Made by a program: the position numbers and the translations under genes. Positions 27,033 to 52,702 of a stretch of DNA of 64,000 nt are shown here, piece by piece; the stretch's first letter is position 1; the number at the start of each line of letters is the position of its first letter. The notes below the pieces were generated by a model, which saw only the letters and a list, made by a program, of their open reading frames with translations, ran no database searches and was not told the origin of the DNA. This DNA is from Candidatus Omnitrophota bacterium (GTDB lineage: Bacteria > Omnitrophota > Gorgyraeia > B26-G9): assembly GCA_043805415.1 (NCBI GenBank), contig JAZDHZ010000036.1:4194-68193 (forward strand), written 5' to 3'.

Positions 27033-27033
27033 T

Positions 27034-27561: not shown

Positions 27562-27562
27562 G

Positions 27563-30710: not shown

Positions 30711-30741
30711 AGAAACAGTTGTTAAAGTCGGTTTATCTTCT

Positions 30742-31365: not shown

Positions 31366-31376
31366 TATAAACCTCT

Positions 31377-32255: not shown

Positions 32256-32269
32256 CTCTGTTCCTTTAA

Positions 32270-33695: not shown

Positions 33696-36600
33696 TATTT
33701 TACCGCTTTAAATGAATATATTTTACCAGAATCTGGACCAACAAGGACATAAGTCTCTTGCACATCCCAGGTCTCAGTATTATATATCAAATGCAACGCT
33801 GCTCCGCCTTTAATCGCAGCGCCTGTATCATAAGGCCATCCTGGGACAATCTGGCCTGTAGCTACATCAACCGCATAGAATTTACCATTATCCGCGCCAA
33901 AATAAACTATGCCGTTCTCAACCAGCGGCCAGGAATCAATTGGCGAACCAACATCAACTGGAAAATTCGGTTTCATACTGCCATCCGTAATACTGACCGC
34001 GTACAGTTTTCCATCCTGCGATCCAAAAAATACATAACGGGATCCTGTATCAAACCAGGGAGCTGAGTAAACCGCGCCGCCTACAGAGATTGGATTAACT
34101 GTCCAGCCTGTATCAGCACTGTCTGAGCTTAAATTTGAGGTATTAACCGCATAAAATTTCCCATTTGTTGTACCAAATAGCATTAATCGCCTTGAACTGC
34201 CGACACTTGGGTTTTGCAAAGTAATAGTTGGTGCTGTTTTAATTGCCCCTTCTGAGCCAAACCCTGTATCAAATGTGCGTGCGCCTGTTCCATCAACTGC
34301 TTTAAAACCATAAACTTTTCCGTCACTGGCCCCAAAATATATTTCATCATAATCTAAAGTTGGAACATAAATCATGGCTGGGGATGATTCAATAGCACCG
34401 CCGACAGCAGCCGGAGCTCCCCAGGCATCTGTTCCATCGGCAGAATCAATACAATAGATATTATTCGCGGTTGTGCCAAAATATACCCCAGAAACATAGT
34501 CATACAAGACTGTGGTTGTAAGCGACTCACCCATTACTCTATTCCATCTAAGCGTATTATCTGCCCATAATCCATATACTGTCTTGCCTACAGTTCCAAA
34601 ATAAACAATATCTTTTAAATCCGCGCCGTCAATATCAGTTGATGGATATGGCAAGCCTCTAATCTTTCCGGAAGTTGTGAAACTAGTCTCAAGTTCATGT
34701 GTATCGCCATTTAAGATATATAGATTATTATCATCTGATCCAATATATATTTTATTTTCCATTCCCCAATAAGCTATCGGAATACTGCGTATTGGGCCAA
34801 GCACATTCGCCCCTGTAGGATATATCCAATCCGCGTTTAGGGTGCTAATACTCACATTGGCCGATACATTAGCTATTGAACTTACATCTGCTTGAGAGCT
34901 TGAATCCACACCCGATGCATTTCCCGTAAAATTAACTGTTCCGGAAGTTATCCCTGCTTTATATGTCCAAATAAAATTTTGCTGCGTCTGGGGAGCTATA
35001 TTCGCAGTTAATGGTATCGGGCCAGTTAAAAGATTTGCCGCAGCACTAGTCCCCCCAATAGTTATGATAGATGGAGATACTCCCTGTGCTGTAGCACCTC
35101 CTGTGTTTGCAGTATTAGTTACAGTCATTGTCACTGTTATTGTCGCGTTAGTAAGCAAAGACGATGGAGTTGCCGCAATTGAAGATGTCAAAGCTGCTGA
35201 TTCAGTTAAAATTCTGATATCGCTTGATGCTGAAGCAGCAGACGCTGTTTCGGTTGCATTAGCATGCCCGGTAAAGTTAACAATGCCTAATGTGCTTCCG
35301 GCATTATAAGTCCAGCTGAATTGCTGTGTTGCTCCTGATCCAAGAGTTGCAATACTTGCTGGAATCGGCCCTGTGGCATAAAGCGCGTCTGAAGAACTGC
35401 CTCCCACAGCCAAGCTGGATGGCGTAATATTGTTTAATATACTGCCGCCTGTATTTTGCACATTCATCGTTACTGTGATTGTATCAGATGGTTGAACTGA
35501 ACTCGGAGTTGCACTTATTGATGAAGTCATGGCATATGAAGGCGGTGATTGCACAGTTACTGAATCTTGAGCTTGAGTTGCCGTTAAAACAGCATTAGAA
35601 TTCGCATCTATTCCCTGCGCGATTCCTGCTGCAAAATTCGCAACTCCTGCCCCTGATCCATGACCAATAAATATAAATTCTTTTGATCTGCCGCCTTTTA
35701 TTGTTGCTGTTGTAGGACTTGGCCCAGAATCAATAATTGGATTAGCCGAACCAGAGGGAATAAGTACTGGAGCTACATTTAATGCATCCGCTTGCCCTGG
35801 ATTAGAAACTGTTACTTTAATAGTTATATTTTCATTTGTATTTACTGTTGCCGGCGCAGCATAGACATTTAAAGTTAAACTCGCTTTTTGTACAATCGTA
35901 ATATCATTTGAAGAAACTGTGGTTGATTTAATGATTCCATCTGTATCCGTACCCTGGGCATATCCAGCAAAACTAACTGTGCCGGCACTTGCGCCAGCGG
36001 TATATGTCCATTGAAATTGTTTTTGACCTGCTGGATCAATATTTTGCGCGCTGGGATTTGAACTTGTTGTAGCTGTTGCGCCTCCTGTTGAGCTGACAGT
36101 TAATACACTGGGGTCAACATCATTAACTAAGGAACTTCCAGTATTGTTTACTGTCATAGTAACCGTAAACTGTTGATCTGTGCTGACAATATTTTTTGAA
36201 CTTGCAACTGCAGCTGTTAGATTTCCCCTGCCGATTATGTAAGGTCCTGCATGAGTAACTGTACTTGACCAATTACCCACATTATCCACACTGCGAATAT
36301 GCCCATAATAACTTCCCGAGGCCAGATCATTTGCCGTATATGTGCCTTGACCTTGATCAACATTAATATATTGCGGAGGAATGGTTGTGGGACTTGTATT
36401 CACGATAATACTGTACCCGGCAACCCCTGATTGAGTATCCGTAACATCAGACCAGGTAAATTGGATATCATTATTAATTGATGGAACTCCCTGAGTATGG
36501 GATGAGGATGTAAGCGTTGTTACAAAATTAGGAGCAGTACTATCCAGGACTACACTAAAAGGCACATTAGCCGTGTTTCCAGCATTATCATAAACAACTG

Positions 36601-39600
36601 CATTAACATTATTATAATTTGCTCCAGATGAGGATATCTCATATGTATATAAATACTGATAAGCACCTGCATCTTCAGTTGTGTCAACACCTCCAGTACT
36701 TGTTGTTGTCGGAAATAAAGCTTCTTTTAATCCTGATGCTGCATCGCTTGCGCTAACACAAACCCGGAAAGCCGAATAAGCTAATCCGGAATAATAAATC
36801 AGATTACCGCTTACACTTAAGTAATCTCCGCCGGCATATTCAGTTATTTGGTAAATAGACGTTGCTGTGGGCGCTTGAGTATCTATGTAAAAAGGTCCAA
36901 GATGCGCGGCAGTTAAAGCCCAGTTACCTACATTATCTACACTTCTGATATGCACATAATGCGTATTGCCATTTGCTAGAACAGGGCTTGTCGCTGTATT
37001 CTGTGTTTGTTCTATATCTTTTATATTATCCGGAATTGTTGTTGGATTATTATCCCATAGAACAGAATAACCATCCAAGCCGCTGTCCGCGTCAACAGCC
37101 GGAGTCCAGCTTACAGCCACAGTATTATCTTTTGACTGAGGGTCACTCCACATACTAATCGCATTATTATGCGAGTTTGTAGCCAGGCCGGAAATATTGC
37201 CCGGAACCACAGAATCAACAATATAACTTCCCGTTGAATTCAAAACACTGTCTTCAGCTGTTGGTGAAAATTCAAAACTAATCCCATTTACCGGAACACT
37301 TAGGTCTACTGTTGCCCCATTAGTAACAGTCCCGGCTAAATCCACGGTTGCATACAATTCTTCTGTTCCGGCAATTGGAATATTCACATTAAGATCAGCA
37401 AACGTTGCTGTTCCACTTGAAAAAGTTTTTATTCCAATTTGTGAATCAACCCCTAATTCAAACTCACCTGAATTATTACTATCATAATAAAGTTTTACCG
37501 CGCTTATTTGCGCATCGAAAATTGTTCCGCTATTATTAATCGTAAAGCTCTTAACCGTATCTAAAGCCAAGACATTATTATTCGTAAGCGTAAGGTCTAA
37601 GACTAATTTATTACTTTCTCCCTGTTTTATATATCCGCTGCTAAGCGCGTTAGCAGTAATATCTACAGTAAGCGAAGAAGCCTGGACAACAAGCACTCCC
37701 TCTGTATTATCATCGGTTATTAAGCTGTCAGTGACATCAATATTCAGAGTCTGCGCTGTATTGTCTGTCAGATCAAAAGAAGCGACTCCATTGTCCTGCT
37801 GCGCGAATGTATACATTGCCGTATCCACACTTGCTCCGCCTTCTGTAAAATACCCTGCTCCGCTATGCAGCAACCAGCTGATATTATTCACATCCCCATC
37901 AGTATCTAAAATAATTGTTCCGACATAATCTATTTTTATATTGCCATATTGATCTTTTGCTGTTACATTTATCTCTTCTCCCACAGATTGAACCGCGGTT
38001 CCATCATGACTTATTGTAAAATAATTTAAGACATTTGGATTTACGGTTAAGCCCCCTTCTGTATCATCATCAAATTTACCATCACCGCTAACCGAAATAT
38101 TTAAAATTTCCGCGGTGGTATCATTAAGCGAAAGGCTAACTACCCCATTGTCTGCTGGAGCATAAGTATAAGTCGCGGTATCAGCATTTGCTCCGCCATC
38201 AATAAATGTGCCATTGCCAAAAACATTTGCCCAGGTAATTGTTGTCACGGTCCCGGTTGTATCCAAAGTTATAGTTCCGCTATAATCATTTTGGGTATTA
38301 TTATAATAATCCTTTGCGTAAATACTGATGTTTTCCGCGATACCGGCTGTAGCGCTGGAGTCATGAACAATCTTAAAATGATCTAAACCGCTGGGAGAAA
38401 CTACCATATTTCCTTCTGTATCATCATCAAATTTACCTGAACCGGAAATATCTATGTCTACAGATTCAGCAAATGTATCAGTAAACATCAGCACAACCAA
38501 ACCATTATCTCCGGCAACAAAATTATATGTTGCTGTATCAACCGATGCTCCTCCGTCATTTAAAACGCCTAATCCAGAATCCAAAGCCCAGGCAATAGAA
38601 GTCGCAGAGCCATTAGTATCTATGGTTATGGTCCCTATATAGTTAGTTTTAATGTTCGCGTATATATCATATGCTTTTACTGTAATCAATTCTCCAATAC
38701 CAGCATATGCCGCGGCATCATGACTGATGATAAATTTATCTAAAGCTCCAGCACCGACAACCAAAATACCTTCAGTATCATCATCTGCTTTGCCATCACC
38801 GTTTGCCGAGATATTCAAATTTTCTACTGTAGTATCCGTAATACTTAAAATAACTATCCCATTATCCGCTAAACTAAATGTATAATCAGCAGTATCAACC
38901 AATGCTCCATTATCATTAAATACTCCATGCCCGGAAACATTTGACCAGGTGATTGTTGTGGCTGTACCATTTGTATCTACAGTGATTGTTCCGGTATAAT
39001 TTGTAATTGTGTTGGCATAGGCGTCTTTGGCTGTGATTGTTATATTTTCGGCGACTCCGGCCTGGGCGCTGGCATCATGGTTAATCACAAACTTATTCAG
39101 CGTATTAGGAATAACAGATATATTCCCTTCCGTATTATCATCTGTCTTTCCATCCCCTGACACGGAGATATTAAATGATTCGGTTTTAGTATCCGCTATT
39201 CCCAAAGTAACTGTACCATTATCCGCGGCCGCGAATGTATAAGTCGCGGTATCAACTGTCGGCCCGCCATCATTAAATATGCCATTACCCGAAATATTTG
39301 ACCAGGCAATTGTTCCAGCAGTGCCGTTTGTATCTAAAGTTATCGTACCTGTATAATTTGCAACCGGATTATTATTCGCGTCATGGGCAATAATCGTAAT
39401 ATTCTCAACTACTCCGGCTATTGCATTAGCGTCATGGTTTATTGTAAAGTGATTTAATCCCAAAGGATTAAAAATTAAATTCCCTTCGCTATTATCATCG
39501 GTTTTCCCGCTGCCGCTGGCACTGATATTAATTGTCTGTGTCTGGGTATTAGTAATTGTCAGAACAACAATACCATTATCACTGGAGTTAAAAGTGTAGG

Positions 39601-39868
39601 TTGATGTATCAGCATTTGCCCCATTATCATTAAATATCCCGGCTCCTGATTGCAAAGCCCAGGTTATTTCCGTAGCAGTTCCATTTGTATCCAGCGTCAT
39701 GGTTCCGGTATAATTAGTAACTGTTACATCACTCGCGTCTTTAGCGATTACCGTGATCTGCTCCGGCACACCGGCAATCGCATTGCCGTCATGAATGATT
39801 TTAAAATGATGAAATCCCGCGGCAACTACTTCCAAAACCCCCTTCATAATCATCATCTGTTTTTGCAT
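33695..39868 (-). CDS. C-terminal ~2057 aa of the giant adhesin, as currently framed after the homopolymer frameshift. It has ~8 Ig-like 119-aa repeats, FN3-like modules, DUF11-like repeats and a C-terminal PQQ-type beta-propeller.
   Basis: The repeat signature HF.I.HDG.A.AG...YTG.ITLDTNGT...DTATYTF...DNG.V.L...GDGKTDD continues from the upstream ORF. The C-terminal 600 aa contain YFG..DG.LY/FYAV propeller-like repeats. The apparent start MQKQMMIMKGVLEVV lies mid-repeat. Confidence 0.8.
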   Translation of the reverse strand: MQKQMMIMKGVLEVVAAGFHHFKIIHDGNAIAGVPEQITVIAKDASDVTVTNYTGTMTLDTNGTATEITWALQSGAGIFNDNGANADTSTYTFNSSDNGIVVLTITNTQTQTINISASGSGKTDDNSEGNLIFNPLGLNHFTINHDANAIAGVVENITIIAHDANNNPVANYTGTITLDTNGTAGTIAWSNISGNGIFNDGGPTVDTATYTFAAADNGTVTLGIADTKTESFNISVSGDGKTDDNTEGNISVIPNTLNKFVINHDASAQAGVAENITITAKDAYANTITNYTGTITVDTNGTATTITWSNVSGHGVFNDNGALVDTADYTFSLADNGIVILSITDTTVENLNISANGDGKADDDTEGILVVGAGALDKFIISHDAAAYAGIGELITVKAYDIYANIKTNYIGTITIDTNGSATSIAWALDSGLGVLNDGGASVDTATYNFVAGDNGLVVLMFTDTFAESVDIDISGSGKFDDDTEGNMVVSPSGLDHFKIVHDSSATAGIAENISIYAKDYYNNTQNDYSGTITLDTTGTVTTITWANVFGNGTFIDGGANADTATYTYAPADNGVVSLSLNDTTAEILNISVSGDGKFDDDTEGGLTVNPNVLNYFTISHDGTAVQSVGEEINVTAKDQYGNIKIDYVGTIILDTDGDVNNISWLLHSGAGYFTEGGASVDTAMYTFAQQDNGVASFDLTDNTAQTLNIDVTDSLITDDNTEGVLVVQASSLTVDITANALSSGYIKQGESNKLVLDLTLTNNNVLALDTVKSFTINNSGTIFDAQISAVKLYYDSNNSGEFELGVDSQIGIKTFSSGTATFADLNVNIPIAGTEELYATVDLAGTVTNGATVDLSVPVNGISFEFSPTAEDSVLNSTGSYIVDSVVPGNISGLATNSHNNAISMWSDPQSKDNTVAVSWTPAVDADSGLDGYSVLWDNNPTTIPDNIKDIEQTQNTATSPVLANGNTHYVHIRSVDNVGNWALTAAHLGPFYIDTQAPTATSIYQITEYAGGDYLSVSGNLIYYSGLAYSAFRVCVSASDAASGLKEALFPTTTSTGGVDTTEDAGAYQYLYTYEISSSGANYNNVNAVVYDNAGNTANVPFSVVLDSTAPNFVTTLTSSSHTQGVPSINNDIQFTWSDVTDTQSGVAGYSIIVNTSPTTIPPQYINVDQGQGTYTANDLASGSYYGHIRSVDNVGNWSSTVTHAGPYIIGRGNLTAAVASSKNIVSTDQQFTVTMTVNNTGSSLVNDVDPSVLTVSSTGGATATTSSNPSAQNIDPAGQKQFQWTYTAGASAGTVSFAGYAQGTDTDGIIKSTTVSSNDITIVQKASLTLNVYAAPATVNTNENITIKVTVSNPGQADALNVAPVLIPSGSANPIIDSGPSPTTATIKGGRSKEFIFIGHGSGAGVANFAAGIAQGIDANSNAVLTATQAQDSVTVQSPPSYAMTSSISATPSSVQPSDTITVTMNVQNTGGSILNNITPSSLAVGGSSSDALYATGPIPASIATLGSGATQQFSWTYNAGSTLGIVNFTGHANATETASAASASSDIRILTESAALTSSIAATPSSLLTNATITVTMTVTNTANTGGATAQGVSPSIITIGGTSAAANLLTGPIPLTANIAPQTQQNFIWTYKAGITSGTVNFTGNASGVDSSSQADVSSIANVSANVSISTLNADWIYPTGANVLGPIRSIPIAYWGMENKIYIGSDDNNLYILNGDTHELETSFTTSGKIRGLPYPSTDIDGADLKDIVYFGTVGKTVYGLWADNTLRWNRVMGESLTTTVLYDYVSGVYFGTTANNIYCIDSADGTDAWGAPAAVGGAIESSPAMIYVPTLDYDEIYFGASDGKVYGFKAVDGTGARTFDTGFGSEGAIKTAPTITLQNPSVGSSRRLMLFGTTNGKFYAVNTSNLSSDSADTGWTVNPISVGGAVYSAPWFDTGSRYVFFGSQDGKLYAVSITDGSMKPNFPVDVGSPIDSWPLVENGIVYFGADNGKFYAVDVATGQIVPGWPYDTGAAIKGGAALHLIYNTETWDVQETYVLVGPDSGKIYSFKAVK

Positions 39869-42800
39869 CTCCGCTGACTGCGATATTGATAATCTCTGAA
39901 ACCGTATCAGTCAGCAATAAAGTAACCTGCCCATTATCTGCGCCCGCAAATGTATAAGTCGCGGTATCCACACTTGCCCCGCCATCATTAAACACTCCAT
40001 TTCCCGTGCTAAGCGCCCAGTTTATGGCATTAGCGGTGCCGTCAGTATCAACAGTTATCAAACCAGTATAATCAGTTTTAATATTATTATAAGCATCATA
40101 AGCTTTAATAATAATCGACTCCGGTTGATTCTGTAAAGCAAACCCATCATGGACAATAGAAAAATGGTCGATAATTCCTGGTCCTACATTAAGCATTCCT
40201 TCGGTATCATCATCTGTTTTGCCTGACCCGGATACGGAAATATTTAATTGCTCAAGAGTTGTATCTTGCAAAGATAATACAACCACTCCATCATCCGCTA
40301 AACTATAAACATAAGTAGCTGTATCTACTGATAAACCGCCATCAACAAAAGTACCATTGCCGCTGATTTTTGCCCAGGTTATGGTTGAAACTGTTCCATT
40401 GGTATCCAAAGTAATTTGTTCAGTATAATTTTTTTTCGTATTTCCATACTGATCCTTGGCAGTTATTGTAATTGTATCCAGTATTCCTGCTTGAGCAGCA
40501 CCGTCATGGGCTAGCAAAAAGTGATCCAGCACTGCGGCAGAAACAACAAGATTCCCTTCAGTATTATCATCCGACTTACTATCACCGGTTACCGCGATAT
40601 TCAGACTCTCCGCTGTAGTTGAGGTCAAGGCAAACGTGGCTGTTGAATTATCTGAAGCATTAAACGTATAAGTAGCTGTATCTACTCCCTGTCCACCATC
40701 AGTAAAAATTCCAAAACCGGTTAACAATTGCCAGCTTATTCCAGCGGCAGTGCCATTTGTATCTAAATTAATTTGTCCTGTATAATTAGACACTGTATTA
40801 TTAAAAGCATCCTTTGCTGTTACAGTTACATTTTCGGCAATACCGGCAATAGCCGCGGCATCATGGGTGATCAGAAAATGATCAATCCCTCCGGAAGCAA
40901 TAACTAAATTACCCTCAGTATTATCATCGGTTTTAGCATCGCCGCTGGCAGATATATTGATTGACTCTGCTTTATTGTCAACCAGACTAAATACCGCGGT
41001 TCCATTATCCGAAGCTGAAAAAGCATAAGTAGCAGTATCCACAGATGCTCCGCCCTCTGTAAATATTCCATTGCCTGTTACCTTTGCCCAGGTTATTGCC
41101 GTAGCTGTTCCGGTTGTATCCAAGGTAATTGTTCCGCTATAAGAAGTTTTAATATTTCCATAAATATCCCGGGCTGTCAGAGTAATCTGTTCCGGGATAC
41201 CGGTTATTGCTGATTGGTCATGCTGGATTACAAAATGATCTAGGGCCAAAGATACCGGGATGATCCCCGCTGAATTCAGCACTGTATCTTCTATCTGAAC
41301 GCCATAAACAAAACTTATCCCATTAACCGGAATCTGGATATCCAGCGTATCAGCATCATTAACAGTTTGCGCCAGAGCGCAAACTACAAAAATATCTTCA
41401 GAACCGCTAGCCGGAACACTAATATTTAAACCTGTAAATGTTTTAGTGCCAGAGTTAAACACTCCGGAACCAACCTGATTATCAACACCCGTTGTATAAT
41501 CATTAGAATTATTGCTGTCATAATATAATTTTAATGAAGAGATTTCCGTATCTGATAGCGTTCCGGTATTATTAATCACCAGGGAATTTATTACTCTTGC
41601 CTGGCTGGCAGTATTAGTTACCGTAACATCAAGACTTAAAACATTACTGGCCCCGGCAGCTATCGGAGTTGTGCTAACCGCATTAGCAATCGCGTCCGGA
41701 GGAAGTTCATAATAAATCCGCGCTGGTATCCAATCCAAATATAAATAAATAGTTGTGCTGGGAGTGCTGGCATTAATTCTCACCCGGAAATTAGCATTTG
41801 TAAAATTATCAACTGTCCAGGTTCTGCCCCAAACATCAGTTGGCCCGCCCAGAACATATGTTACTTCTGATGTAATCATATCCGGCGTAATTTTTCCTGT
41901 TGTAGTAAAGCTGGTTCCGCCATCCCAGGAAAGTTCAACCAAACCTTGGGTCAAGCCAGTAGTACTGGACGCATAGGCATCAAGCTGAACCGCAATACCC
42001 AAAATCGTTGACCCAGCCGGAATATTAACCCCATAATTATAGTACTGCTGTGATTGTCCATTGTATGAAGTAGCACGCGAAGCATCATTCGCGTAAGCAT
42101 TTGCAGGGCTGGTAAAATTACCGCTATTAGCTGTTGGCGACAAATACCCGGTATTCAATCCGCCTACTGGATTTATAACTAAATTACTTTCAGTATTATC
42201 ATCACTCTTGCCATCACCGCTAACTAAGATATTTATTGTTTCAGCCGTGCTATCATTTAAGGAAAGCACAACCATTCCATCATCAGCATCACTAAATGTG
42301 TACAAAGCTGTATCAAGTGATGCCCCTCCATCCTGGAACACTCCCACACCAGCGGTTAATGTCCAATCAATCGCTGTCGGCGTTCCATTGGTATCAAGAG
42401 TTATCTGTCCGGTATAATTATCCTTAATATTTTCCCAAACATCTTTAGCATAAATCGTAATTGATTCTCCCAGATTAACAACCGCTGAACCGTCATGGAA
42501 AATTGTAAAATGGTCAATTAGTGACGGTCCGATAATTATATCTCCTTCGGCATTAGTATCATTTTTTCCATCCCCGAAAACCGCGAGATTAATTACTTCT
42601 TTTTTCGTATCAGTAATTGCTAAAACCACAATCCCATCATCAGAGTCAGCATAGGTATATGTCGCTGTATCAACCAAAGCGCCTCCGTCGGCTAATGTAC
42701 CATTGCCAGTTATTTTTGACCAGGTAATTGTTGTCGCTGTTCCATTTGTATCCAAGGTTATTGTCCCGGTATAATTATCTTTGATATTTGAATACAAATC

Positions 42801-45800
42801 ATATGCTCTTACTGTGACATTTTCCGCTACCCCGGCTTCGGCATTTCCATCATGAATAATTACAAAATGATCAATACTGGTCGGGCCGACAATTAAATTA
42901 CCTTCTGAATCATTGTCAGTTTTCCCTCCGCCAAAAACATCAATATCAATATTTTCCTTTTTTGTATCACTAACGCTTAAAACCACAATCCCATCATCAG
43001 AGTCAGCATAAGTATATGTCGCTGTGTCAACCAAAGCTCCGTTATCAGTAAACACCCCATTGCCGGTAATTTTAAGCCAGGTAATCGTTGTCGCTGTTCC
43101 ATTTGTATCCAAGGTTATTGTCCCGGTATAATTATCTTTGATATTTAAATATGAATCATAGGCTTTTATCGTAACAGTCTCCGCTACTCCGGCCTCGGCA
43201 TTACCATCATGATTAACTACAAAATGGTCGATACTGGTCGGCCCAACAATTAAATTACCTTCTGAATCATTGTCAGTTTTCCCGTCCCCGGTTACGGAAA
43301 TATTTAGACTTTCCGCGGTTGTGTCAGTTATCTTTAGTATACATTGACCATTATCTGCCGCTAAGAATGTATACGTAGCTGTATCAACTGATGCTCCGCC
43401 GTCAACAAAAGTTCCCAAGCCAGTAGCTTTAGCCCAGGTTATTGTTCCGGCTGTGCCATTAGTATCCATACTGATCTGCCCGGTATAATTTGTCTTAATA
43501 TTGCCATAGGAGTCATAAGCAACTATTGTTATATTATCCGCAATACCGGCAACCGCGCTTCCATCGTGATTAATGGAAAAATAATCAATCGCTCCTGGCC
43601 CGACGGTTAAGGTTCCTTCTTTATCATCATCAGATTTTCCCGCTCCGCTTACTGATATATTTAAGCTTTCGACTATTGTATCAGTTATACTCAGCACGCA
43701 GGTTCCATTATCACTAGCTACATATGAATATGTTGCTGTATCAGCCAAAGCTCCGCCATCACTAAAACTGCCGTTTCCGGTAATTTTCGCCCAGCTAATA
43801 GTTGTCGCAGTGCCGGTTGTATCCAAATCAATCTGTCCGGTATATGCGGTTAATGTATTATTATTCGCGTCTTTTGCCGCGATTGTTACTGTATCAGCGA
43901 TTCCCGCGACAGCATTACCATCATGCGTAATTGTAAAATGATGCAGGCCCGCGGGATTGAACACAAGATTTCCTTCTGTATTATTGTCAGACTTGCCTTC
44001 TCCGGAAACTGAGATATTTACTGATTCTTCGGAAGAATCAGTAATTGTTAAAACCACTACCCCTAAATCTGAATCATCATACATATAAGAACAGGTATCT
44101 GCATCCGCGCCAGAATCATTAAAAGTTCCATTCCCGGATTGTAATGCCCAGGCAATAGTCCCAGAGGTTCCGGTTGTATCAATGGTTATCTGTCCGCCAT
44201 AACTTGTTAAAGTATCCCCATTAGCATTTTTCGCGTAAATTGAAATACTTTCCCCAATACCGGCAATCGCGTTACCGTCATGGACAATCAGAAAATGGTC
44301 AATCCCGGAAGAAACAAATACTAAATCACCCTCGTTATTACTATCATTCTTCCCGTCACCGGACACAGAGATATTTACAGATTCAGCAGTATAATCAATT
44401 ATACTTAAAATCACGATTCCGGCATCAGCAGGCACAAAAGTATAAGTTGCTGTATCTGCTGAAGAACCCGCATCATTAAAAACTCCTTCTCCGCTGATAA
44501 GTGTCCAGCTGATTGTAGTCACAGTTCCTGTGGTATCAAGAGTAGTCACTCCAGTATAATCATCTTTGATGTTTTCATAAGCGTCATAGGCAGTTATCAT
44601 AACTTGTTCTGATACATCTGTTGTGGCAATCCCATCATGATTAATCACAAAATGATCAATATCTCCAGAAGTAATAACTAAATTTCCTTCTGTATTATCA
44701 TCAGTCACACTACCGGCACTAACCGATATATTAATTGTCTCTGTTTTTGTATCAGTAAGGTTAAACACTGCTGTTCCATTATCCAAAGCATTAAAAGTAT
44801 AAGTTGCCGTGTCTAAGGATGCTCCGTTGTCAGTAAAAATACCATTTCCAGTATTCAGCGCCCAGGTTATTTTGGTCGCTGTCCCGGTTGTATCTAAATT
44901 TATTGTACCAGTATAATTATTTTTTATATTGCCAAACCCATCCAAAGCTGTTATTGAAATAGCTTCGGCATTTCCAGCAATAGCCTGCCCCTCATGACTA
45001 ATCACAAAATGATTAAGTTCTCCAGGAGCAATTATCAGATCCCCTTCACTATCATCATCGTATTTTCCATCTCCGACAGCGATAATATTTAATGTCTCTG
45101 CCTTATTGTCAACAATCTCAAACCTGGCTAAGCCAGTATCACTGGGGTCAAAAGTATAGATTGCTGTACCCGCGCCAGCTCCATTGTTAAAAAACACACC
45201 TGATCCTGAGTCTAGAGTCCAGTTAATATCATCCACAGAACCGTTTGTTCCCAATGTTATCTGTCCGGAGTAATTATTAACTGTATTGCCAAAACTATCT
45301 TTTACCGTAACTGAAATTATTTCTCCCGCACCAGCTATTCCTGAGCCATCATGACTAACTATAAAATGATTCACAAGCCCGGCGGAAACCGTAAGATCAG
45401 TCTCAGTATTATCATCACTTTTACCATCACCGCTTGCTGAAATATTTATTATCTCAGCGATTTCATCACTAATGTTTAATACTACCACACCCGCATCAGA
45501 CTGAGTAAATGTATATATTGCTGTATCTAAACTTACGCCGCCATCATTAAAAACCCCGCTCCCAGCATATTTTGACCAGGTAATTGATTCAGGAGTTCCA
45601 TTAGTATCAACAGTTATTGTTCCAGTATAATCGGTTTTTGTATTGCCATAAGCGTCTTTAGCAATAATCGTAATGTTTTCATCTAAGCCGGCAATTGCCG
45701 CCCCATCATGGCTAATCAAAAAATGATCTAATCCAATATATGTCTGGCGTGTACCGCTGGAGTTTAATACAGCGCTGCCGAGTTTTTTGCCATTAGAAAA

Positions 45801-48800
45801 ACCAATCCCTGAGATCGGAATTGCCACATCAAGCAGTTTTCCTGACGCGCAGGCTGAAGACAAATCAATAACCGCGAATAAATATTGGGTTGCTCCAGCA
45901 GGAATATCAATATTAAAACCTGAAAAAATTTTACTTCCTGAGGAAAAACCGCTATTGCCTACCTGGGTATCTACTTCCGGGGTGTAATCCAAAGAATTAT
46001 TTGAATCATAATACAATTTTACTGCTGAAATCTCGCTATCACTGACTGTTCCTACATTATTTAAGGTAACACTGTTTATCGTTAGCGTGCTCCCTTCATT
46101 ATTCGTAACTGAAACATCAAGAATTAAATTGCCTGTTTGGCCTACTGGGATAGTATCAGTTATTACTGGATTTGCTGTTGCTGTTGCCGCTAAGCCTACG
46201 CTAATAAAAGTCGTTGGTGAATTCTGATTATTATATTCTGTGGCAATCCATTCCGGAGAACGCGCGGTAATTGCGTAGCGTACCTCATCCAACTTTCCAA
46301 GCCAGTATTCCGTGCTATAATTTGACCAGCCAATCAAAGCTGATGTTGCTGTAGGAAATGTTGCGCTATGCGTCCCGGTTCCATGCAGAGCTCCGTCAAC
46401 ATAAAAATAAACCATTGTCCCGACTCTGCGGAAATCAACCTTATGCCATTGACCATCATTATGCGTAGCTGTTCCGCTGGAAGTAATCAATCCATTATGA
46501 TAAACCATGGCCACGCTTTGATTATAAAAACCAAATTGCGGCGCGTAATTATTATGGTCATAAATCGTTGAATATGATGCCGGAGAAGAAATATAATTAA
46601 ACCACGCGGAAATAGTATAATCCCCGGGAGTGCCCACTCCCACCGGACTGGTCTTCTTAAAGTAATCATTACTGCCGTCAAAATCTATTCCTTTGCCGAT
46701 TTTAGCGTCAATCAAATCCGTATTAGTCATGGTTCCGTAAGAAGTCATCGCGTTATTATTGGAAGTTGAATCTTTTTCCTGCGGAGCGGTTGCTGAAGGA
46801 TCATTATTTAAATGCCAGACGCCTTTATATGATGTATCCCATACTCCGCTTTTATTCTGCTGATCACTGGCAGCGCTATTTCCATAATACATATAAATCT
46901 TTGTATCTGCTGATGATAAAAGACTGGGAATTTTTACCCAGGCCACAAGGATTCCGGTTGTTTTATCAAAGCTTTCTATTTCATGATCTAATTTTGTATT
47001 TCCGTCACTGGCAGTAAAAACAATATCAAAACCATCGCTGCGGGCATTATCCCGCAATGCTGTATCTGTAATACTTATCAGTACTGGAAAATTAGTCAGA
47101 TTAGCCATGACTTTTGTCCGGTCAATTGTGATCTCTTTATGAAAAGACCAATTTGCTAGTAAAAACTGAGTGATCACTAAATTGCCTTCAGTATTATCAT
47201 CAGTCATGCCGCCGCCGCTTACCGAAATATTTATTGTCTCCGCGGTTGTGTCGGTCAAATCAAGAGTTACCACTCCGAAATCCGCGGAACCATATGTATA
47301 AGTCGCGGTATCAACACTGGCTCCGCCGTCAACAAAAGCTCCTGCGCCTTGATATTTTGACCAGGTAATTGTTGTCGCGGTTCCGGTTGTGTCAACGATT
47401 ATCGACCCGGTATAATCTGTCTTAATATTATTAAAACCATCATACGCGGCTATCGTAATATGCTCCGGCTGTCCGGTAAAAGCATTATTATCATGAGAAA
47501 TAATAAACTTAGTTAATGCCCCGGGAAGCACCTGCAATAATCCTTCACTATTATCATCAGAAGCACTGCCGGACACAGCAATATTTATTGTCTCAGTAAA
47601 AGTATCAGCCATTGCCAAAACAACAACTCCATTATCCGCAGCGCTAAATGTATAGGAACAGGTATCTGCTGATGATCCGTCATCTACAAATGTTCCGCTT
47701 CCGCTAATTTTCGTCCAATTGATTGTACTAGCTGTTCCATCAGTATCAATATATATGGTTCCAGTATAATCAGTTTTGGTCTGGCCTAATGTATCTTTAG
47801 CCGTAATTGTAATATTTTCATTTGTTCCGGCAATAGCCTGACCGTCATGCGCGATCAGGAAATGATGCAGCAATGCTGTATCAATATTCAGCAGGCCCTC
47901 GCTATCATCATCAGTTTTTCCGCTGCCGCTAATATCAATATCAATATTTTCCACCACATTATCCGTTATTGCCAGGGTTACTACCCCATTATCTAAAGCG
48001 GAAAATGTATATACAGCTGTATCCACAGCTGTACCGCCGTCATTAAATGTCCCATTACCGCTTATCTTAGCCCAGCTGATTGCCGCGGGAGTTCCGCTGG
48101 TATCGATTGTTATGGTTCCAGTATAATCTGTCTTTATCTGACCAATACTGTTTAATGCCGTAATCGTAACAGTTTCCGCTACCCCGGCATTACCCGCTCC
48201 ATCATGTACTACCCGAAAAGACCAAATAATCGCAGGCCCAACCACTAAATTTCCCTCAGCATTATTATCAATTTTTCCATCGCCGGAAACTGAAATATTA
48301 ATTGATTCCGCTGTAATATCAGTTATCGCGAAAACCGCGATGCCATTATCTGCTGAATCAAAAGCATATGTCGCGGTATCGACACTTTCTCCATTATCAT
48401 TAAATATGCCATTGCCTGTTGTTTTTGCCCAGCTGATTGCTGATGCCGTGCCATCTGTATCTAAAGTAATTGTTCCGCTATAATCACTTTTTGTATTGCC
48501 ATAGATGTCTTTTGCTGTCACTGTTACTTGCTCGGAAACTCCGGATGATGCCGCATTATCATGGCTTATCAGAAAATAATCAATTGCCGCGGCACTGACC
48601 ACCATTGTCCCTTCAGCATCAGTATCAGTTTTTCCCTCAGCACTGGCATCAATATCAATTGTTTCTTTTTTTGTATCCGTAATACTCAAAACAACAGCAC
48701 CCGCGTCAGAAAGCACAAAACCATATGTCGCGGTATCAACCGAACTGTCTCCGTCAGTAAGCACGCCATTTCCGCTTATTTTCGCCCAGCTGATTGTTGT

Positions 48801-51800
48801 CGCCGTGCCATTAGTATCCACAGTCATTGTCCCGGCATAATCGGTTTTAATATTATTATAAATATCATACGCGATAATCGTAACATTATCCGCTATGCCG
48901 GCTATGGCTTGAGCATCATGGCCAACAATAAAATGATCCAAAGCTGTTGGAGCAATCACTAGATTTCCTTCAATATCATTATCATGAATCCCTGAATCAT
49001 CAACCAAAATATTCAGCGTTTCGGCTTTAGTATCCTTAATAGTAAATATAGCCACACCATTATCATTGGGATTAAAAGTGTATTGAGCTGTATCAACGCT
49101 TGCCCCGCCTTCGCTAAAAGTTCCCAGTCCAGTACTAATCGTCCAGGAAATAGTTGTCGGAGTACCATTTGTATCAAGATTAATCGTGCCCACATAATCA
49201 GTTTTTGTCTGACCATTTGTATCTTTTGCTGTGACTTTTACGTTTTCTTTAACCCCGGCAACTCCGGCATTATCATGTTCAATAACAAACCAGCCTAAAG
49301 CAGTTGTCGAAACAACCAATGTTCCTTCAGCATCATCATCACTATGCGTTCCATCAGTTACCTCAATATCCAGATTATTTGCCGCGCTGCATGTAAGCTG
49401 CAAAACAACAACCCCATTATCCGCGGCATTAAAAGTATAAGTCGCGGAATCATTATCAACCCCATTATCCACAAAACTACCGCTGCCGCTAACCAATGTC
49501 CAGGTAATCTGGTTTGTTTCATTTAAAGTACTCAGTGTTATCTGCCCGGTAAAATCATTAACCGTACAATTGGTAATATTTTTCGCTGTAATTGTTATGG
49601 TTTCCAAAGTATTAATCAATGCTGAGCCATCATGCGTAATCACAAAATGATCTATTGCTGTATCAATAGTAAAAGTATCATTAGTATCATTAAGCATAAT
49701 ATTTCCGGCAATATCCTTTGCCGCGCTTATTGCTATTGCTGCTGTCCCATCTCCTGTAGCACTATTTATCGCGCTGCTATTATAGACAGTATATGTATCA
49801 TTCGGATTATTCGTGGTTGACCAATAACCATTAAGACTCGCGTTCTGCACGCCGGTTGCTCCGCTAGGATCATAAGTTACAATCGGATTTGTGCCGGTAT
49901 CCATTGACTCGGAAAAAAGCAGAGTAAATGTTAACTCTCCTGGCGCCCGGTGACCGCTGGGATCAGGCAAAACTCCCACACTTACTGTGGGCTTTGTTGA
50001 ATCAAATATAAAAGTAAATAATGTCGCCGCCGGTTCACTATAATGTCCCAAAGCATCAAAAGTCCGTACGCGCAAATAGTAAGTAGTACCTTCATTAGCA
50101 TCAGAAATAACATTATACTGCGCTGTAGCTTGTTCCTGAACTGTTGCCGGATTACCTTCAGGATTAATTCCCCAATAAACTGAATAACCGCTGACTCCTT
50201 GTCCATTGCCGTCAGCAGCTCCGGTCCATTCAAAATAAGGAGTTGAGTCAATTCCCTGCGGAGTATTATCCGAAATAAGCGTGTTTTTTGACGCGGAATC
50301 CCAGGCATTACACGGAATAGCAGGATTTAGCGGAGCAGTGGCATCATATTTAAAAGTAAACAAAGTAACCGGAGTGCTATAATGATTCAGATTATCAAAA
50401 GTTCTTATCCTTAAATAATAAGTACCATCTCCCATAGGAGTACTAACTTCATAATTCGCATTGCCCTGTTCTTGGTTAGTTCCAGGTGCTCCATTTATAT
50501 CAGTGCCCCAATAAACAGAATAACCGCTTAGTCCTGAACCACCGCTGTCATTGGCTCCGGTCCATTCAAAATATGGAGTATCATCCGCTTCCTGCCAGGT
50601 ATTATTACTGATCGGATTTATTTTTAAATTTGTTTGCCATGCCGCACAAGGGATATCTGGATTTAAAGGAGCGCCAACATCATAGCGAAAAGTGAACAGA
50701 GTTATCGGTTCACTGTAATTTCCGATAACATCAAAAGTTCTGACTCTTAGAAAATATACACCGTCTTCAGTTCCGGAAGAAACATTATAATTGCTAGCAG
50801 TCTGGCCTTGAGTCAAGCCTGGTTCGCCGTTCGCGTCATTTCCCCAGTAAACAGAATAACCGCTGACTCCTGTGCCGCCCGTATCAGTTGCTCCTGTCCA
50901 TTCAAAATAAGGAGTATTATCTGATTCCTGCCATGTATCATTAGATATTGGGTTTATTTTACTGCTGGAATCCCATGCGCTGCAAGGTAGCGTAGGATTA
51001 ATCGGAATAGTAGTATCAATAAAAAAAGTATCATTCCCATCCGCGACCATGATATTAGCAGCTAAATCCTGCGCGGCACTCACGCTAACTACCGCGGGGC
51101 CGTCTCCGGTTTGGGCGGTTATTGCATTATCATTATATACGGTATAAGTATCATTCATTTCCGAAGTAGTTGACCAGATGCCCCCGGTACACGGCTGAGC
51201 CAGGGTGTCTCCTTGCGGATCATAAGTTACCGACGGAGTAACTCCTGTATTCATTGTCTCGCTGAATACCAGCTTTATTTCCAGAGAACCTGATGAAATC
51301 TCCCCTACCGGGTTGGGCGTAACACTTATATTTACCGTGGGTTTAATATAATCTGCCGGCCTTCTGATCGCGAAAAGTTCCACATCCTTGGAATATACCG
51401 TTCCTCCACTGGCACGGTGCCATGCCTTTACTTCATGCTGGTTGGCATCAAAGTTAACAATAGCCATATAATTGGCATTCATATAATCCGTCAAATCTTT
51501 ATAGTCTCTGTATTCAGTTGCCTGTATAACATCTGTTGCCGGATCAGCCGCGTCATGCGAAAATTCGTGGTATTGTAGGTAAGAAAGACTGCTTGTCCGT
51601 CCAAATGCCTGGCCGATAATCAGATACTCTCCAGGAGTATCTGCCGGGATTGTTGCCGTAGCCAAAAGCTGGTTTGATGTTGAGGCTGTAGAAGCTTGTG
51701 AGCTTGCGTACTGTTGATCCAAAAAGAAATCATATATTCCGGACAACCGCATAGCAAATATTCTCTGTTTACGGATAGTGCCACTAGTCGCGTCATCCAT

Positions 51801-52640
51801 CCTCGACTCAAGGCCTATGCTATGCGAGCCCGCGCTAAGATTTACCACTGAAGTTATAAATACCGGCTGCCAGTCAGTAGTATCCTGCGCTTCCAGCATA
51901 TAGTGCCGATTTGCCGCATCCGCGTAAGGCTTATACGTACTGTTATCAATATTTATCCTTATTTGCGAAGAGTCTGAGACATTATTAACATCCAGTTCAC
52001 AATACCCCATAATCAGATACTGTCCGGCAGAAGCGGGACTGATACTTAAAGAAGCTCCCAGATTTTCCCAGACCATGCTGGAAGTCATCGCATAACTTGC
52101 CGCGCCGGCATCAGTATCATAAGCATATTGATAACCGGTTTGCGAATTAATCGGGATCGCGATAAGCCGGGAACGCTTTACGCGAGTCGTGGTACCATCA
52201 TCATTGCGGTGGTCAAAATCAACGTACTGCGAACCACTTAAATTTTGCGCCACATAAAATCCGGAAACAGTTGTATAATTAGTTATGTTTACTGTTTCAA
52301 TTTTAACCGCGTCATTAGCTGAATATCCCATCAACTGAATACTGTTATTCAATTGAACCTGCAATTCCACACTATCAGCAGCAGTAGCTCCTTGCCACTC
52401 CAATTCCCACATGATCAGCCAATCAGTATTCGGCTCGGCAGTCCATCCCAAAGTATTATGTTCCGTCCAGGTTGTTGTGCTTGTACTGGTTTGTTCATTG
52501 AGGTTTTCACTGCTATACCATACATCATAAGCTCTAGCAGAGGGAGAAAATGCGCCTATCAGCAAAAAACAAAACAAAATTAAAAAGAGAATTCTGTGGG
52601 ATTTAGCAATCTTAAGTTTTTTAAAAAAATAATTTCTCAT
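39801..52640 (-). CDS. N-terminal ~4280 aa of the giant secreted adhesin. It has a signal peptide, two ~200-aa N-terminal beta-rich domains, three FN3-like modules, ~21 Ig-like 119-aa repeats, and an embedded DUF2341+LamG (MshQ-like) module.
   Basis: The start was set at the second Met (MRNYFFKK...), preceded by GGGGAAGGG. Signal peptide RILFLILFCFLLIGAFSPSARA. The repeats are seen directly. The DUF2341-like segment is WSFHKEITIDRTKV...NFPVLISI...IYMYYGN and the LamG-like segment is ...ISAWFNY...QWHKVDFRRVGTMVYFYVDG. The frame ends at a TAA 37 nt after a C5 tract. Confidence 0.85.
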   Translation of the reverse strand: MRNYFFKKLKIAKSHRILFLILFCFLLIGAFSPSARAYDVWYSSENLNEQTSTSTTTWTEHNTLGWTAEPNTDWLIMWELEWQGATAADSVELQVQLNNSIQLMGYSANDAVKIETVNITNYTTVSGFYVAQNLSGSQYVDFDHRNDDGTTTRVKRSRLIAIPINSQTGYQYAYDTDAGAASYAMTSSMVWENLGASLSISPASAGQYLIMGYCELDVNNVSDSSQIRINIDNSTYKPYADAANRHYMLEAQDTTDWQPVFITSVVNLSAGSHSIGLESRMDDATSGTIRKQRIFAMRLSGIYDFFLDQQYASSQASTASTSNQLLATATIPADTPGEYLIIGQAFGRTSSLSYLQYHEFSHDAADPATDVIQATEYRDYKDLTDYMNANYMAIVNFDANQHEVKAWHRASGGTVYSKDVELFAIRRPADYIKPTVNISVTPNPVGEISSGSLEIKLVFSETMNTGVTPSVTYDPQGDTLAQPCTGGIWSTTSEMNDTYTVYNDNAITAQTGDGPAVVSVSAAQDLAANIMVADGNDTFFIDTTIPINPTLPCSAWDSSSKINPISNDTWQESDNTPYFEWTGATDTGGTGVSGYSVYWGNDANGEPGLTQGQTASNYNVSSGTEDGVYFLRVRTFDVIGNYSEPITLFTFRYDVGAPLNPDIPCAAWQTNLKINPISNNTWQEADDTPYFEWTGANDSGGSGLSGYSVYWGTDINGAPGTNQEQGNANYEVSTPMGDGTYYLRIRTFDNLNHYSTPVTLFTFKYDATAPLNPAIPCNAWDSASKNTLISDNTPQGIDSTPYFEWTGAADGNGQGVSGYSVYWGINPEGNPATVQEQATAQYNVISDANEGTTYYLRVRTFDALGHYSEPAATLFTFIFDSTKPTVSVGVLPDPSGHRAPGELTFTLLFSESMDTGTNPIVTYDPSGATGVQNASLNGYWSTTNNPNDTYTVYNSSAINSATGDGTAAIAISAAKDIAGNIMLNDTNDTFTIDTAIDHFVITHDGSALINTLETITITAKNITNCTVNDFTGQITLSTLNETNQITWTLVSGSGSFVDNGVDNDSATYTFNAADNGVVVLQLTCSAANNLDIEVTDGTHSDDDAEGTLVVSTTALGWFVIEHDNAGVAGVKENVKVTAKDTNGQTKTDYVGTINLDTNGTPTTISWTISTGLGTFSEGGASVDTAQYTFNPNDNGVAIFTIKDTKAETLNILVDDSGIHDNDIEGNLVIAPTALDHFIVGHDAQAIAGIADNVTIIAYDIYNNIKTDYAGTMTVDTNGTATTISWAKISGNGVLTDGDSSVDTATYGFVLSDAGAVVLSITDTKKETIDIDASAEGKTDTDAEGTMVVSAAAIDYFLISHDNAASSGVSEQVTVTAKDIYGNTKSDYSGTITLDTDGTASAISWAKTTGNGIFNDNGESVDTATYAFDSADNGIAVFAITDITAESINISVSGDGKIDNNAEGNLVVGPAIIWSFRVVHDGAGNAGVAETVTITALNSIGQIKTDYTGTITIDTSGTPAAISWAKISGNGTFNDGGTAVDTAVYTFSALDNGVVTLAITDNVVENIDIDISGSGKTDDDSEGLLNIDTALLHHFLIAHDGQAIAGTNENITITAKDTLGQTKTDYTGTIYIDTDGTASTINWTKISGSGTFVDDGSSADTCSYTFSAADNGVVVLAMADTFTETINIAVSGSASDDNSEGLLQVLPGALTKFIISHDNNAFTGQPEHITIAAYDGFNNIKTDYTGSIIVDTTGTATTITWSKYQGAGAFVDGGASVDTATYTYGSADFGVVTLDLTDTTAETINISVSGGGMTDDNTEGNLVITQFLLANWSFHKEITIDRTKVMANLTNFPVLISITDTALRDNARSDGFDIVFTASDGNTKLDHEIESFDKTTGILVAWVKIPSLLSSADTKIYMYYGNSAASDQQNKSGVWDTSYKGVWHLNNDPSATAPQEKDSTSNNNAMTSYGTMTNTDLIDAKIGKGIDFDGSNDYFKKTSPVGVGTPGDYTISAWFNYISSPASYSTIYDHNNYAPQFGFYNQSVAMVYHNGLITSSGTATHNDGQWHKVDFRRVGTMVYFYVDGALHGTGTHSATFPTATSALIGWSNYSTEYWLGKLDEVRYAITARSPEWIATEYNNQNSPTTFISVGLAATATANPVITDTIPVGQTGNLILDVSVTNNEGSTLTINSVTLNNVGTVSDSEISAVKLYYDSNNSLDYTPEVDTQVGNSGFSSGSKIFSGFNIDIPAGATQYLFAVIDLSSACASGKLLDVAIPISGIGFSNGKKLGSAVLNSSGTRQTYIGLDHFLISHDGAAIAGLDENITIIAKDAYGNTKTDYTGTITVDTNGTPESITWSKYAGSGVFNDGGVSLDTAIYTFTQSDAGVVVLNISDEIAEIINISASGDGKSDDNTETDLTVSAGLVNHFIVSHDGSGIAGAGEIISVTVKDSFGNTVNNYSGQITLGTNGSVDDINWTLDSGSGVFFNNGAGAGTAIYTFDPSDTGLARFEIVDNKAETLNIIAVGDGKYDDDSEGDLIIAPGELNHFVISHEGQAIAGNAEAISITALDGFGNIKNNYTGTINLDTTGTATKITWALNTGNGIFTDNGASLDTATYTFNALDNGTAVFNLTDTKTETINISVSAGSVTDDNTEGNLVITSGDIDHFVINHDGIATTDVSEQVMITAYDAYENIKDDYTGVTTLDTTGTVTTISWTLISGEGVFNDAGSSADTATYTFVPADAGIVILSIIDYTAESVNISVSGDGKNDSNNEGDLVFVSSGIDHFLIVHDGNAIAGIGESISIYAKNANGDTLTSYGGQITIDTTGTSGTIAWALQSGNGTFNDSGADADTCSYMYDDSDLGVVVLTITDSSEESVNISVSGEGKSDNNTEGNLVFNPAGLHHFTITHDGNAVAGIADTVTIAAKDANNNTLTAYTGQIDLDTTGTATTISWAKITGNGSFSDGGALADTATYSYVASDNGTCVLSITDTIVESLNISVSGAGKSDDDKEGTLTVGPGAIDYFSINHDGSAVAGIADNITIVAYDSYGNIKTNYTGQISMDTNGTAGTITWAKATGLGTFVDGGASVDTATYTFLAADNGQCILKITDTTAESLNISVTGDGKTDNDSEGNLIVGPTSIDHFVVNHDGNAEAGVAETVTIKAYDSYLNIKDNYTGTITLDTNGTATTITWLKITGNGVFTDNGALVDTATYTYADSDDGIVVLSVSDTKKENIDIDVFGGGKTDNDSEGNLIVGPTSIDHFVIIHDGNAEAGVAENVTVRAYDLYSNIKDNYTGTITLDTNGTATTITWSKITGNGTLADGGALVDTATYTYADSDDGIVVLAITDTKKEVINLAVFGDGKNDTNAEGDIIIGPSLIDHFTIFHDGSAVVNLGESITIYAKDVWENIKDNYTGQITLDTNGTPTAIDWTLTAGVGVFQDGGASLDTALYTFSDADDGMVVLSLNDSTAETINILVSGDGKSDDNTESNLVINPVGGLNTGYLSPTANSGNFTSPANAYANDASRATSYNGQSQQYYNYGVNIPAGSTILGIAVQLDAYASSTTGLTQGLVELSWDGGTSFTTTGKITPDMITSEVTYVLGGPTDVWGRTWTVDNFTNANFRVRINASTPSTTIYLYLDWIPARIYYELPPDAIANAVSTTPIAAGASNVLSLDVTVTNTASQARVINSLVINNTGTLSDTEISSLKLYYDSNNSNDYTTGVDNQVGSGVFNSGTKTFTGLNISVPASGSEDIFVVCALAQTVNDADTLDIQIPVNGISFVYGVQIEDTVLNSAGIIPVSLALDHFVIQHDQSAITGIPEQITLTARDIYGNIKTSYSGTITLDTTGTATAITWAKVTGNGIFTEGGASVDTATYAFSASDNGTAVFSLVDNKAESINISASGDAKTDDNTEGNLVIASGGIDHFLITHDAAAIAGIAENVTVTAKDAFNNTVSNYTGQINLDTNGTAAGISWQLLTGFGIFTDGGQGVDTATYTFNASDNSTATFALTSTTAESLNIAVTGDSKSDDNTEGNLVVSAAVLDHFLLAHDGAAQAGILDTITITAKDQYGNTKKNYTEQITLDTNGTVSTITWAKISGNGTFVDGGLSVDTATYVYSLADDGVVVLSLQDTTLEQLNISVSGSGKTDDDTEGMLNVGPGIIDHFSIVHDGFALQNQPESIIIKAYDAYNNIKTDYTGLITVDTDGTANAINWALSTGNGVFNDGGASVDTATYTFAGADNGQVTLLLTDTVSEIINIAVSGDAKTDDDYEGGFGSSCRGISSF

Positions 52641-52702
52641 TTTACCCTTCCCCACCAACATATTTAAATACTATTTATAATTGATATAAAACACTAAACT
52701 AA

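Follow-up and report, generated by a model that had tools for sequence, protein, structure and literature searches.

A DUF2341–LamG cassette within the Ig-like repeat stalk of a giant Omnitrophota protein

What interrupts an otherwise regular array of repeats in a giant protein, and does the interruption connect the protein to a pilus? The question is raised by a 64,000-nucleotide stretch from a Candidatus Omnitrophota bacterium (GenBank assembly GCA_043805415.1, contig JAZDHZ010000036.1, positions 4,194 to 68,193; the whole stretch is called the window), in which a giant gene on the minus strand encodes tandem Ig-like repeats of 119 amino acids (aa) and, within them, a segment of another kind. 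An initial annotation, made from the sequence without database searches, had seen in this segment a DUF2341 domain followed by a LamG-like lectin domain, likened the pair to MshQ of the MSHA type IV pilus (T4P) loci and proposed a carbohydrate-binding head that independently links the protein to pilus biology. Our analysis supports the domain pair and not the independent link. We consider it somewhat more probable than not that the pair serves in ligand binding, probably of glycans, as part of a Sec-exported fibrillar adhesin of ~6,300 residues.

Identity and conservation of the cassette

All four peptides quoted in the initial annotation were found on the minus strand: LANWSFHKEITIDRTKV at aa 1835-1851 (window 47109-47159), AWVKIPS...YYGN at aa 1907-1928, ISAWFNY at aa 2017-2023 and DGQWHKVDFRRVGTMVYFYVDG at aa 2069-2090, together covering window 46392-47159. 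The plus-strand translation of 46250-47160 is riddled with stop codons. Profile searches bore out both domain calls. A scan of aa 1820-2320 matched Pfam DUF2341 (PF10102) at aa ~1876-1941 with 49.0 bits (cutoff 23.4, E=8.4e-13) and Laminin_G_3 (PF13385) at aa ~1995-2140 with 60.4 bits (cutoff 27.6, E=2.8e-16), the latter over the complete profile (1-151/151), and gave weaker matches to Laminin_G_1/2. When the whole 4286-aa open reading frame (ORF) was scanned, DUF2341 was kept (45.3 bits) and Laminin_G_3 was unlisted, being seen only when the segment was scanned alone, which is a warning for automated annotation. An NCBIfam scan of the module returned no match. The range first proposed, 46250-47160, falls short of the module by ~19 C-terminal residues; alignment and structure modeling place the module at aa 1838-2156 (46194..47150, minus strand), divided into the DUF2341 domain with a conserved linker (aa 1838-1944, 46830..47150) and a LamG/concanavalin-like jelly roll (aa 1945-2156, 46194..46829).

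An AlphaFold2 (AF2) model of the module, built with its homologue alignment, has a predicted local distance difference test score (pLDDT) of 92 and a predicted template modeling score of 0.92. It consists of two beta-sandwich domains packed as one body, the first of them formed by DUF2341, and it is least confident (60-83) where the LamG loops vary; DUF2341 and LamG are accordingly modeled, and here predicted, to be one rigid two-domain unit. In Foldseek comparisons with the Protein Data Bank (PDB), only the LamG half matched well, the best match being the arabinan-binding domain 4 of AbnA (5hon_A; TMt 0.66, rmsd 2.7 Å, 169 columns), and further matches included the clostridial neurotoxin Hc, a trans-sialidase lectin domain and the carbohydrate-binding module CBM40 of NanA, all of them domains that bind carbohydrates or receptors. 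AbnA domain 4, NanA CBM40 and the toxin Hc-N share the jelly-roll fold of the LamG half, but sequence identity is 10-20%, they have no equivalent of DUF2341, and the ligand residues are not demonstrably conserved. A PDB sequence search of the module gave only marginal laminin LG matches. As for the original proposal of a carbohydrate-binding head, the fold likeness to AbnA domain 4, NanA CBM40 and the trans-sialidase lectin domain makes a lectin-like role plausible.

The cassette is far from unique to this protein. A word-indexed search of 5.8 billion nonredundant proteins with a 324-aa query gave 931 matches, and among the best 120, which we examined, nearly all carried both PF10102 and PF13385, most with 35-47% identity over 98-99% of the query; full-length two-domain homologues reached E=3e-75, far past chance. 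An exhaustive HMMER search found the cassette in 31,853 cluster representatives, 19,906 of them with E<=1e-10; at the top of the list were proteins of 4,000-7,900 aa in which up to 22 stretches matched. It occurs in at least 523 GTDB species of bacteria and archaea, where it is placed either right after the signal peptide or deep within proteins of up to 4,705 aa, and cassette proteins elsewhere also carry type IX secretion system (T9SS) tails, PKD domains or pilin N-termini. In other homologues the whole cassette is fused N-terminally to MotA/TolQ/ExbB proteins (99% of its length aligned, 24-29% identity), a fusion of DUF2341 reported from Proteobacteria (PMC12505986); there it is joined to a membrane proton channel, whereas here it sits in a putatively secreted repeat fiber. 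DUF2341 is also common in Patescibacteria proteins of >4000 aa (PMC11809585). Such proteins of uncultivated bacteria and archaea, the giant Patescibacteria proteins included, share with ours the same colinear ~320-aa unit at 35-51% identity and are often 2,000-7,800 aa long, with FN3, Big or PKD repeats and sometimes many cassette copies; the present protein differs in its single copy, its near-unique 119-aa repeat family and its operon resembling type II secretion system (T2SS) and T4P loci. We consider the present copy to be one more ordinary instance of a widespread DUF2341–LamG cassette. The closest cassette of the GTDB genome scan (51% identity) lies in an unrelated 4705-aa protein (L003 1061-15178; GTDB metagenome-assembled genome [MAG] CAYWNT010000008.1), which has two DUF2341–LamG cassettes among FN3/Big-like repeats; architectures of this kind, with the cassette in a giant protein, therefore arise repeatedly.

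Conservation was read from an alignment of 109 sequences; this was too diverse for locus scanning, for which a 12-sequence alignment was used. The start of the cassette is conserved as W.YRK.ITID.TKV..LTNFPVLI...DG.DI.FT...L.HEIE and the linker between the domains as VWDSNYKGVWHL. Both ends of LamG are also conserved (DSTSN.N.G ... FDG..DY at the start, DEVR...ARS..WI.TEYNNQNSP at the end), and its middle is variable. Three residues, D47, W109 and H118, are invariant (module numbering, residue 1 = aa 1833). The colinear domains and the linker (W.YRK.ITID ... VWHL ... DEVR ... TEYNNQNSP) recur in >100 proteins, which places the present module among DUF2341–LamG cassettes.

Is the cassette a working part of the giant protein or a decaying insertion? 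A metagenome scan with the 476-aa insert that contains it revealed one close relative, 87% identical over all 476 aa, on contig Ga0180007_10000165 (GCA_018817165.1 JAHITY010000072.1), an Omnitrophota MAG. The orthologous gene (P0283) is a single 6130-aa ORF that spans both giant ORFs of the window with 83% identity and no gaps, and it has the cassette at the same position in an identical layout. The module as a whole is 87% identical between the two, with a ratio of nonsynonymous to synonymous substitution rates (dN/dS) of 0.11; the values are 88% and 0.118 for DUF2341, 86% and 0.109 for LamG, and 86% and 0.104 for D3, the domain that follows. The 119-aa repeats are 75-89% identical (mean 81%), with dN/dS of 0.09-0.12. 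Because identity to the orthologue is high and dN/dS low, these comparisons indicate that the cassette is a maintained, functional part of the giant protein and not a decaying insertion.

The giant gene and its stalk

The giant gene appears in the window as two minus-strand ORFs. The first (4286 aa, 39801..52661) has a Sec-type signal peptide, head domains, three 119-aa repeat arrays and two inserts; the second (2057 aa, 33695..39868) carries the rest of the repeats and a third copy of D3, then domains like FN3 and CARDB, and ends in a PQQ/BamB-like beta-propeller. The second ORF overlaps the first and starts in the middle of a repeat, being the same gene continued past a frameshift. The break lies at a run of five G (GAAGGGGGTTTT, 39838..39842, minus strand), in which one surplus G splits the gene; the orthologue has GAAGGTGTT and is continuous. 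Deleting one G fuses the frames into ...DDDYEGVLEVVAAGFHHF..., in agreement with ...DDDNEGVLEIVAAGFHHF... of the orthologue, and gives a corrected protein of 6321 aa. A second frameshift in the same operon lies near 30746-30748 in a PilX-like gene: the PilX-like ORF (207 aa) and the DUF7305/pAdhesive_15 ORF (185 aa) at 30153-31365 correspond, in two frames, to one 405-aa gene of the orthologous locus with 83-85% identity. We considered the G run as a phase-variation tract and rejected this. The orthologue lacks a homopolymer at this site and the operon has a second frameshifted gene, so that the split more likely stems from assembly error or recent decay. The two frameshifts may be either assembly indel errors or a recent inactivation of the operon in this genome, and the low dN/dS argues against a long-standing decay. 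Exact-sequence look-ups of the giant ORF, the GspE protein, the response regulator and protein P0124 matched no record.

From its N terminus, the corrected protein has a Sec-type signal peptide, a head of ~400 aa, a Big-like module and three FN3-like modules, followed by 27 Ig-like repeats with two inserts, FN3/CARDB-like domains and the PQQ/BamB-type propeller. The signal peptide (aa 1-44, ...FSPSARA|YDV; 52530..52661, minus strand), read by inspection of the sequence, appears to be of the Sec type and not that of a prepilin. The repeat profile gives a layout of 7 repeats, the 476-aa insert, 10 repeats, a 306-aa insert and 10 repeats, which the orthologue shares (7 / 476 / 10 / 306 / 10). The statement that the module follows seven 119-aa repeats proved exact, as the first array consists of seven contiguous copies (aa 1001-1832, 47166..49661), and the cassette is indeed embedded in an Ig-repeat array, between repeats 7 and 8. 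The second array has ten copies (aa 2309-3498, 42168..45737), as has the third, which runs across the frameshift (37679..41249); all three are on the minus strand.

The repeats are Ig-like at the level of the fold. AF2 models the 119-aa unit as an all-beta Ig-like sandwich (pLDDT 93-97), for which Foldseek finds the Ig-like domains of family GH2 glycosidases and the adhesin FdeC, and Pfam gave no match, including to its Ig and Big families. The 27 stalk repeats (37679-49661) share the motif HF.I.HDG...YTGTITLDTNGTATTI.W. The family is rare: the word-indexed search of 5.8 billion proteins yielded only three fragment homologues. One of these (P0122) is on an 8.4-kb contig (L001), which encodes in addition a stretch with 53% identity to the corrected protein at aa 5255-6008. 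Tandem all-beta sandwiches of this type place the protein among the bacterial Ig-like repeat adhesins.

Other parts of the protein show how the stalk is organized. The cassette-bearing insert is closed by D3, a beta-sandwich of ~150 aa with a weak BNR_assoc_N match (aa 2157-2308, 45738..46193, minus strand). A second copy of D3 (aa 3655-3804, 41250-41699) closes the second insert (aa 3499-3804, 41250..42167), and a third (aa 4995-5150 of the corrected 6321-aa protein, 37211-37678) follows the last repeat array. Each copy of D3 thus closes a repeat array, giving a supra-repeat of array, optional head and D3, and homologues consisting of D3 only were seen on other metagenome contigs (L100, L105-L107, L110). 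The second insert starts with domain X (~155 aa; aa 3499-3654, 41700-42167; ...YYNYGVNIPAGSTILGIAVQLDAY...WGRTWTVDNFTNANFRVRI...), which has no family match, is 86% conserved in the orthologue and has the lowest dN/dS of the protein, 0.08. The N terminus behaves differently from the rest: over the first ~440 aa (aa 45-440, window 51342-52529) no similarity to the orthologous locus (L081 5057-5827) was detectable, and from aa 440 onward the proteins are 75-89% identical. Judged from this comparison, the unrelated N-terminal ~440 aa may be a swapped head that determines specificity.

The locus and its relation to pili

Synteny with the orthologous locus is complete: a histidine kinase, a sigma-54 response regulator, a Y1_Tnp-like gene and the giant gene come first, and then the downstream genes. 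The latter follow in the same order and on the same strand as the giant gene: first, within the operon, a gene of its own for a secreted beta-propeller protein of PQQ type (32270..33403), then two prepilin-like genes, with the N-terminal motifs KGFTLAE and KGFTLVE, and the PilX-like/DUF7305 gene (together 30153..32273). A convergent operon on the plus strand (24461..29931), also syntenic in the orthologue, encodes a ParA-like protein, a PilM–PilN fusion, PilO/GspM, a GspC-like protein and a secretin; after another 16-20 kb come the genes for GspE, F, I/H-like, J and K. The GspE of the window is 100% identical to a Candidatus Omnitrophota MAG protein, and its next organism-named relatives (82-90%) are also from Omnitrophota.

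The giant genes described from Omnitrophota are likewise flanked by T2SS/T4P genes and by genes with class III signal peptides, and prey adhesion has been proposed for their products (10.1101/2023.11.21.568195; 10.64898/2026.06.07.730766). The present protein shares with those giants (West-Roberts et al. 2023 preprint; 2026 complete-genome preprint) the phylum, and its locus shares the GspD/E/F, class III signal-peptide and transposase-like genes in the flanks; by its Omnitrophota origin and the adjacent T2SS/T4P-like locus it belongs with them. It differs in size, being much smaller than the proteins of >30,000 aa stressed there, and neither giant ORF has a Pfam match to a SecA DEAD domain or to multiple transmembrane regions.

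The window has two Y1_Tnp (IS200-like) genes, at 52911-53801 and 3596-4753. Of these, the copy that separates the giant gene from the sigma-54 regulator occupies the same place in the orthologous locus, with 80% identity; instead of an active insertion sequence it may be a domesticated element or a regulator. A radical SAM/SPASM gene lies at 57211-60470, with neighbors annotated in the orthologue as ScmC, PqqD and NTP_transf_5; this neighborhood resembles a maturation cluster for ribosomally synthesized and posttranslationally modified peptides and is located immediately upstream of the two-component system. Another radical SAM/SPASM gene (11568-12725) adjoins GspK.

Does the cassette itself mark pilus loci? 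Among GTDB loci with the cassette, we found a GspE-like gene within 10 kb in 2 of 78 and an ORF with a prepilin motif in 5 of 57, counts that come from a crude test (tblastn of the window's T2SS/T4P proteins and a regular expression for the prepilin motif) that would miss divergent archaeal ATPases and pilins. Some evidence does favor such a link. DUF2341 proteins occur in T4P loci of methanococci (Makarova et al., PMC4858521), pilin N-termini were present in 13 of the 120 best homologues (the archaeal PF07790 in 11, N_methyl in 2), and the Joint Genome Institute (JGI) names a few of the 120 FimT, flagellin-like or, in four cases, MshQ. The cassette points to pili only weakly, and the evidence against is stronger. 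As a general marker of pilus loci it was rejected, given how few GTDB loci have GspE-like or prepilin-motif genes nearby. The claim of an independent link to pilus biology is not supported as it stood: the cassette is promiscuous, as seen in the number of clusters, the ExbB fusions and the T9SS/PKD proteins, and it is rarely near pilus genes. The T2SS/T4P link of the giant protein rests on its operon and not on the cassette.

Could that operon nevertheless make the giant protein a pilus-tip adhesin of the MshQ/PilY1 type, whose C-terminal propeller or last strand docks on the minor-pilin complex encoded downstream? We regard this as unlikely. MshQ of the Vibrio cholerae MSHA pilus is a ~1200-aa protein encoded downstream of mshDOP; a PilY1-like role as a tip adhesin, with docking by the C terminus, has itself been proposed for it (PMC13533445). 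Like MshQ, the giant protein is large, putatively secreted and encoded beside minor pilins, and some cassette homologues carry the MshQ label at JGI, derived from KEGG Orthology. The conserved operon with the propeller protein, the two prepilin-like genes and PilX-like/DUF7305, together with the convergent PilMNO–secretin operon, fits a tip adhesin, as do the C-terminal propeller, which PilY1/PilC proteins share along with adjacent minor-pilin genes, the archaeal T4P loci and the pilin N-termini and MshQ names among the homologues. Other features speak against a tip adhesin of this type. At ~6321 aa the giant protein is five times the size of MshQ, it has 27 Ig-like repeats and a PQQ-type propeller end, and it precedes the pilin-like genes, the opposite of the order in mshDOPQ and pilVWXY1; size (6321 vs ~1200 aa) and gene order led us to reject it as an MshQ orthologue, although it may yet act in a similar way. 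A literature search found nothing that pairs MshQ with LamG. The C-terminal propeller (33698..34950, minus strand) matches PQQ_2 at 50-55 bits, and its PDB sequence matches are BamB and designed propellers; neither Pfam nor the PDB sequence search matched it to PilY1, and size and repeat stalk set the protein further apart from PilY1/PilC. Elsewhere, moreover, the cassette is seldom near pilus genes. If the protein did act at a pilus tip, a type IV-like filament of the Omnitrophota cell would bear a multiheaded adhesin of >100 nm, and the cassette would be a binding head shared with the pilin-fused DUF2341 proteins of archaea and bacteria.

What the cassette may do

The reading that we favor is that of a ligand-binding module in a fibrillar adhesin. 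The giant protein would be exported by Sec as a long Ig-like stalk that spaces several binding heads, namely the N-terminal head, DUF2341–LamG and domain X. Placed in-line between repeats 7 and 8, DUF2341–LamG would form a rigid head of lectin type, conserved in its scaffold and variable in its LamG loops; its ligand would probably be a glycan on the surface of host or prey cells, and its binding would lead to attachment. The protein may be made and used together with the neighboring T2SS/T4P-like machinery.

Several observations weigh against this reading. We know of no ligand for any DUF2341–LamG cassette. A PDB sequence search found no solved structure for the DUF2341 half, and Foldseek found none that spans the two-domain unit. 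Conservation peaks in DUF2341 and the interdomain linker and not in the LamG loops, and because the most conserved residues sit outside those loops, the conserved function may not be lectin-like. The ExbB-like fusions place the cassette in a presumably periplasmic setting, where a prey glycan is an unlikely ligand. Finally, the frameshifts in the giant gene and the PilX-like gene, unless they are assembly indels, may mean that this genome lacks a working copy of the system.

Some of these observations would be explained if the cassette bound the cell's own envelope (peptidoglycan, lipopolysaccharide or S-layer glycan) or served as a structural joint, anchoring or stiffening the fiber. The MotA/TolQ/ExbB fusions of Proteobacteria (PMC12505986) imply such a setting, in the periplasm and at the cell's own envelope, the clustering of conserved residues is in DUF2341 and the linker, and the cassette is in the middle of the stalk and not at its end. 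Many homologues, however, have the cassette straight after the signal peptide, in secreted and T9SS-tailed proteins, or up to 22 times in giant proteins, for which multivalent outward binding is the better fit, and the variable LamG loops suggest a diversified specificity; we hold an envelope or joint function to be improbable, to about the same degree as the pilus-tip role. That the cassette is catalytic, a glycan-cleaving lectin/glucanase-type domain that digests prey cell walls, is very improbable: glucanases and lyases do belong to the fold superfamily, some D, H and W residues are invariant and cell-wall degradation by Omnitrophota giant proteins has been proposed in print (10.1101/2023.11.21.568195), but the best structural matches are noncatalytic binding domains, the invariant residues belong to DUF2341 and the linker and not to a LamG cleft, and neither the segment nor the whole-protein scan gave a Pfam match to a carbohydrate-active enzyme family.

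With the putative adhesin module as the favored reading, the cassette provides a firm domain assignment in a giant protein that otherwise all but defies annotation, from a phylum that is uncultivated and perhaps predatory or epibiotic, and this cassette is kept under purifying selection at a fixed position of the stalk. What DUF2341–LamG binds is a general question worth answering, to which the present copy adds one instance. The conserved operon of giant, propeller and pilin-like genes makes this locus a reasonable test case for the idea that giant proteins may be displayed on type IV-like filaments.

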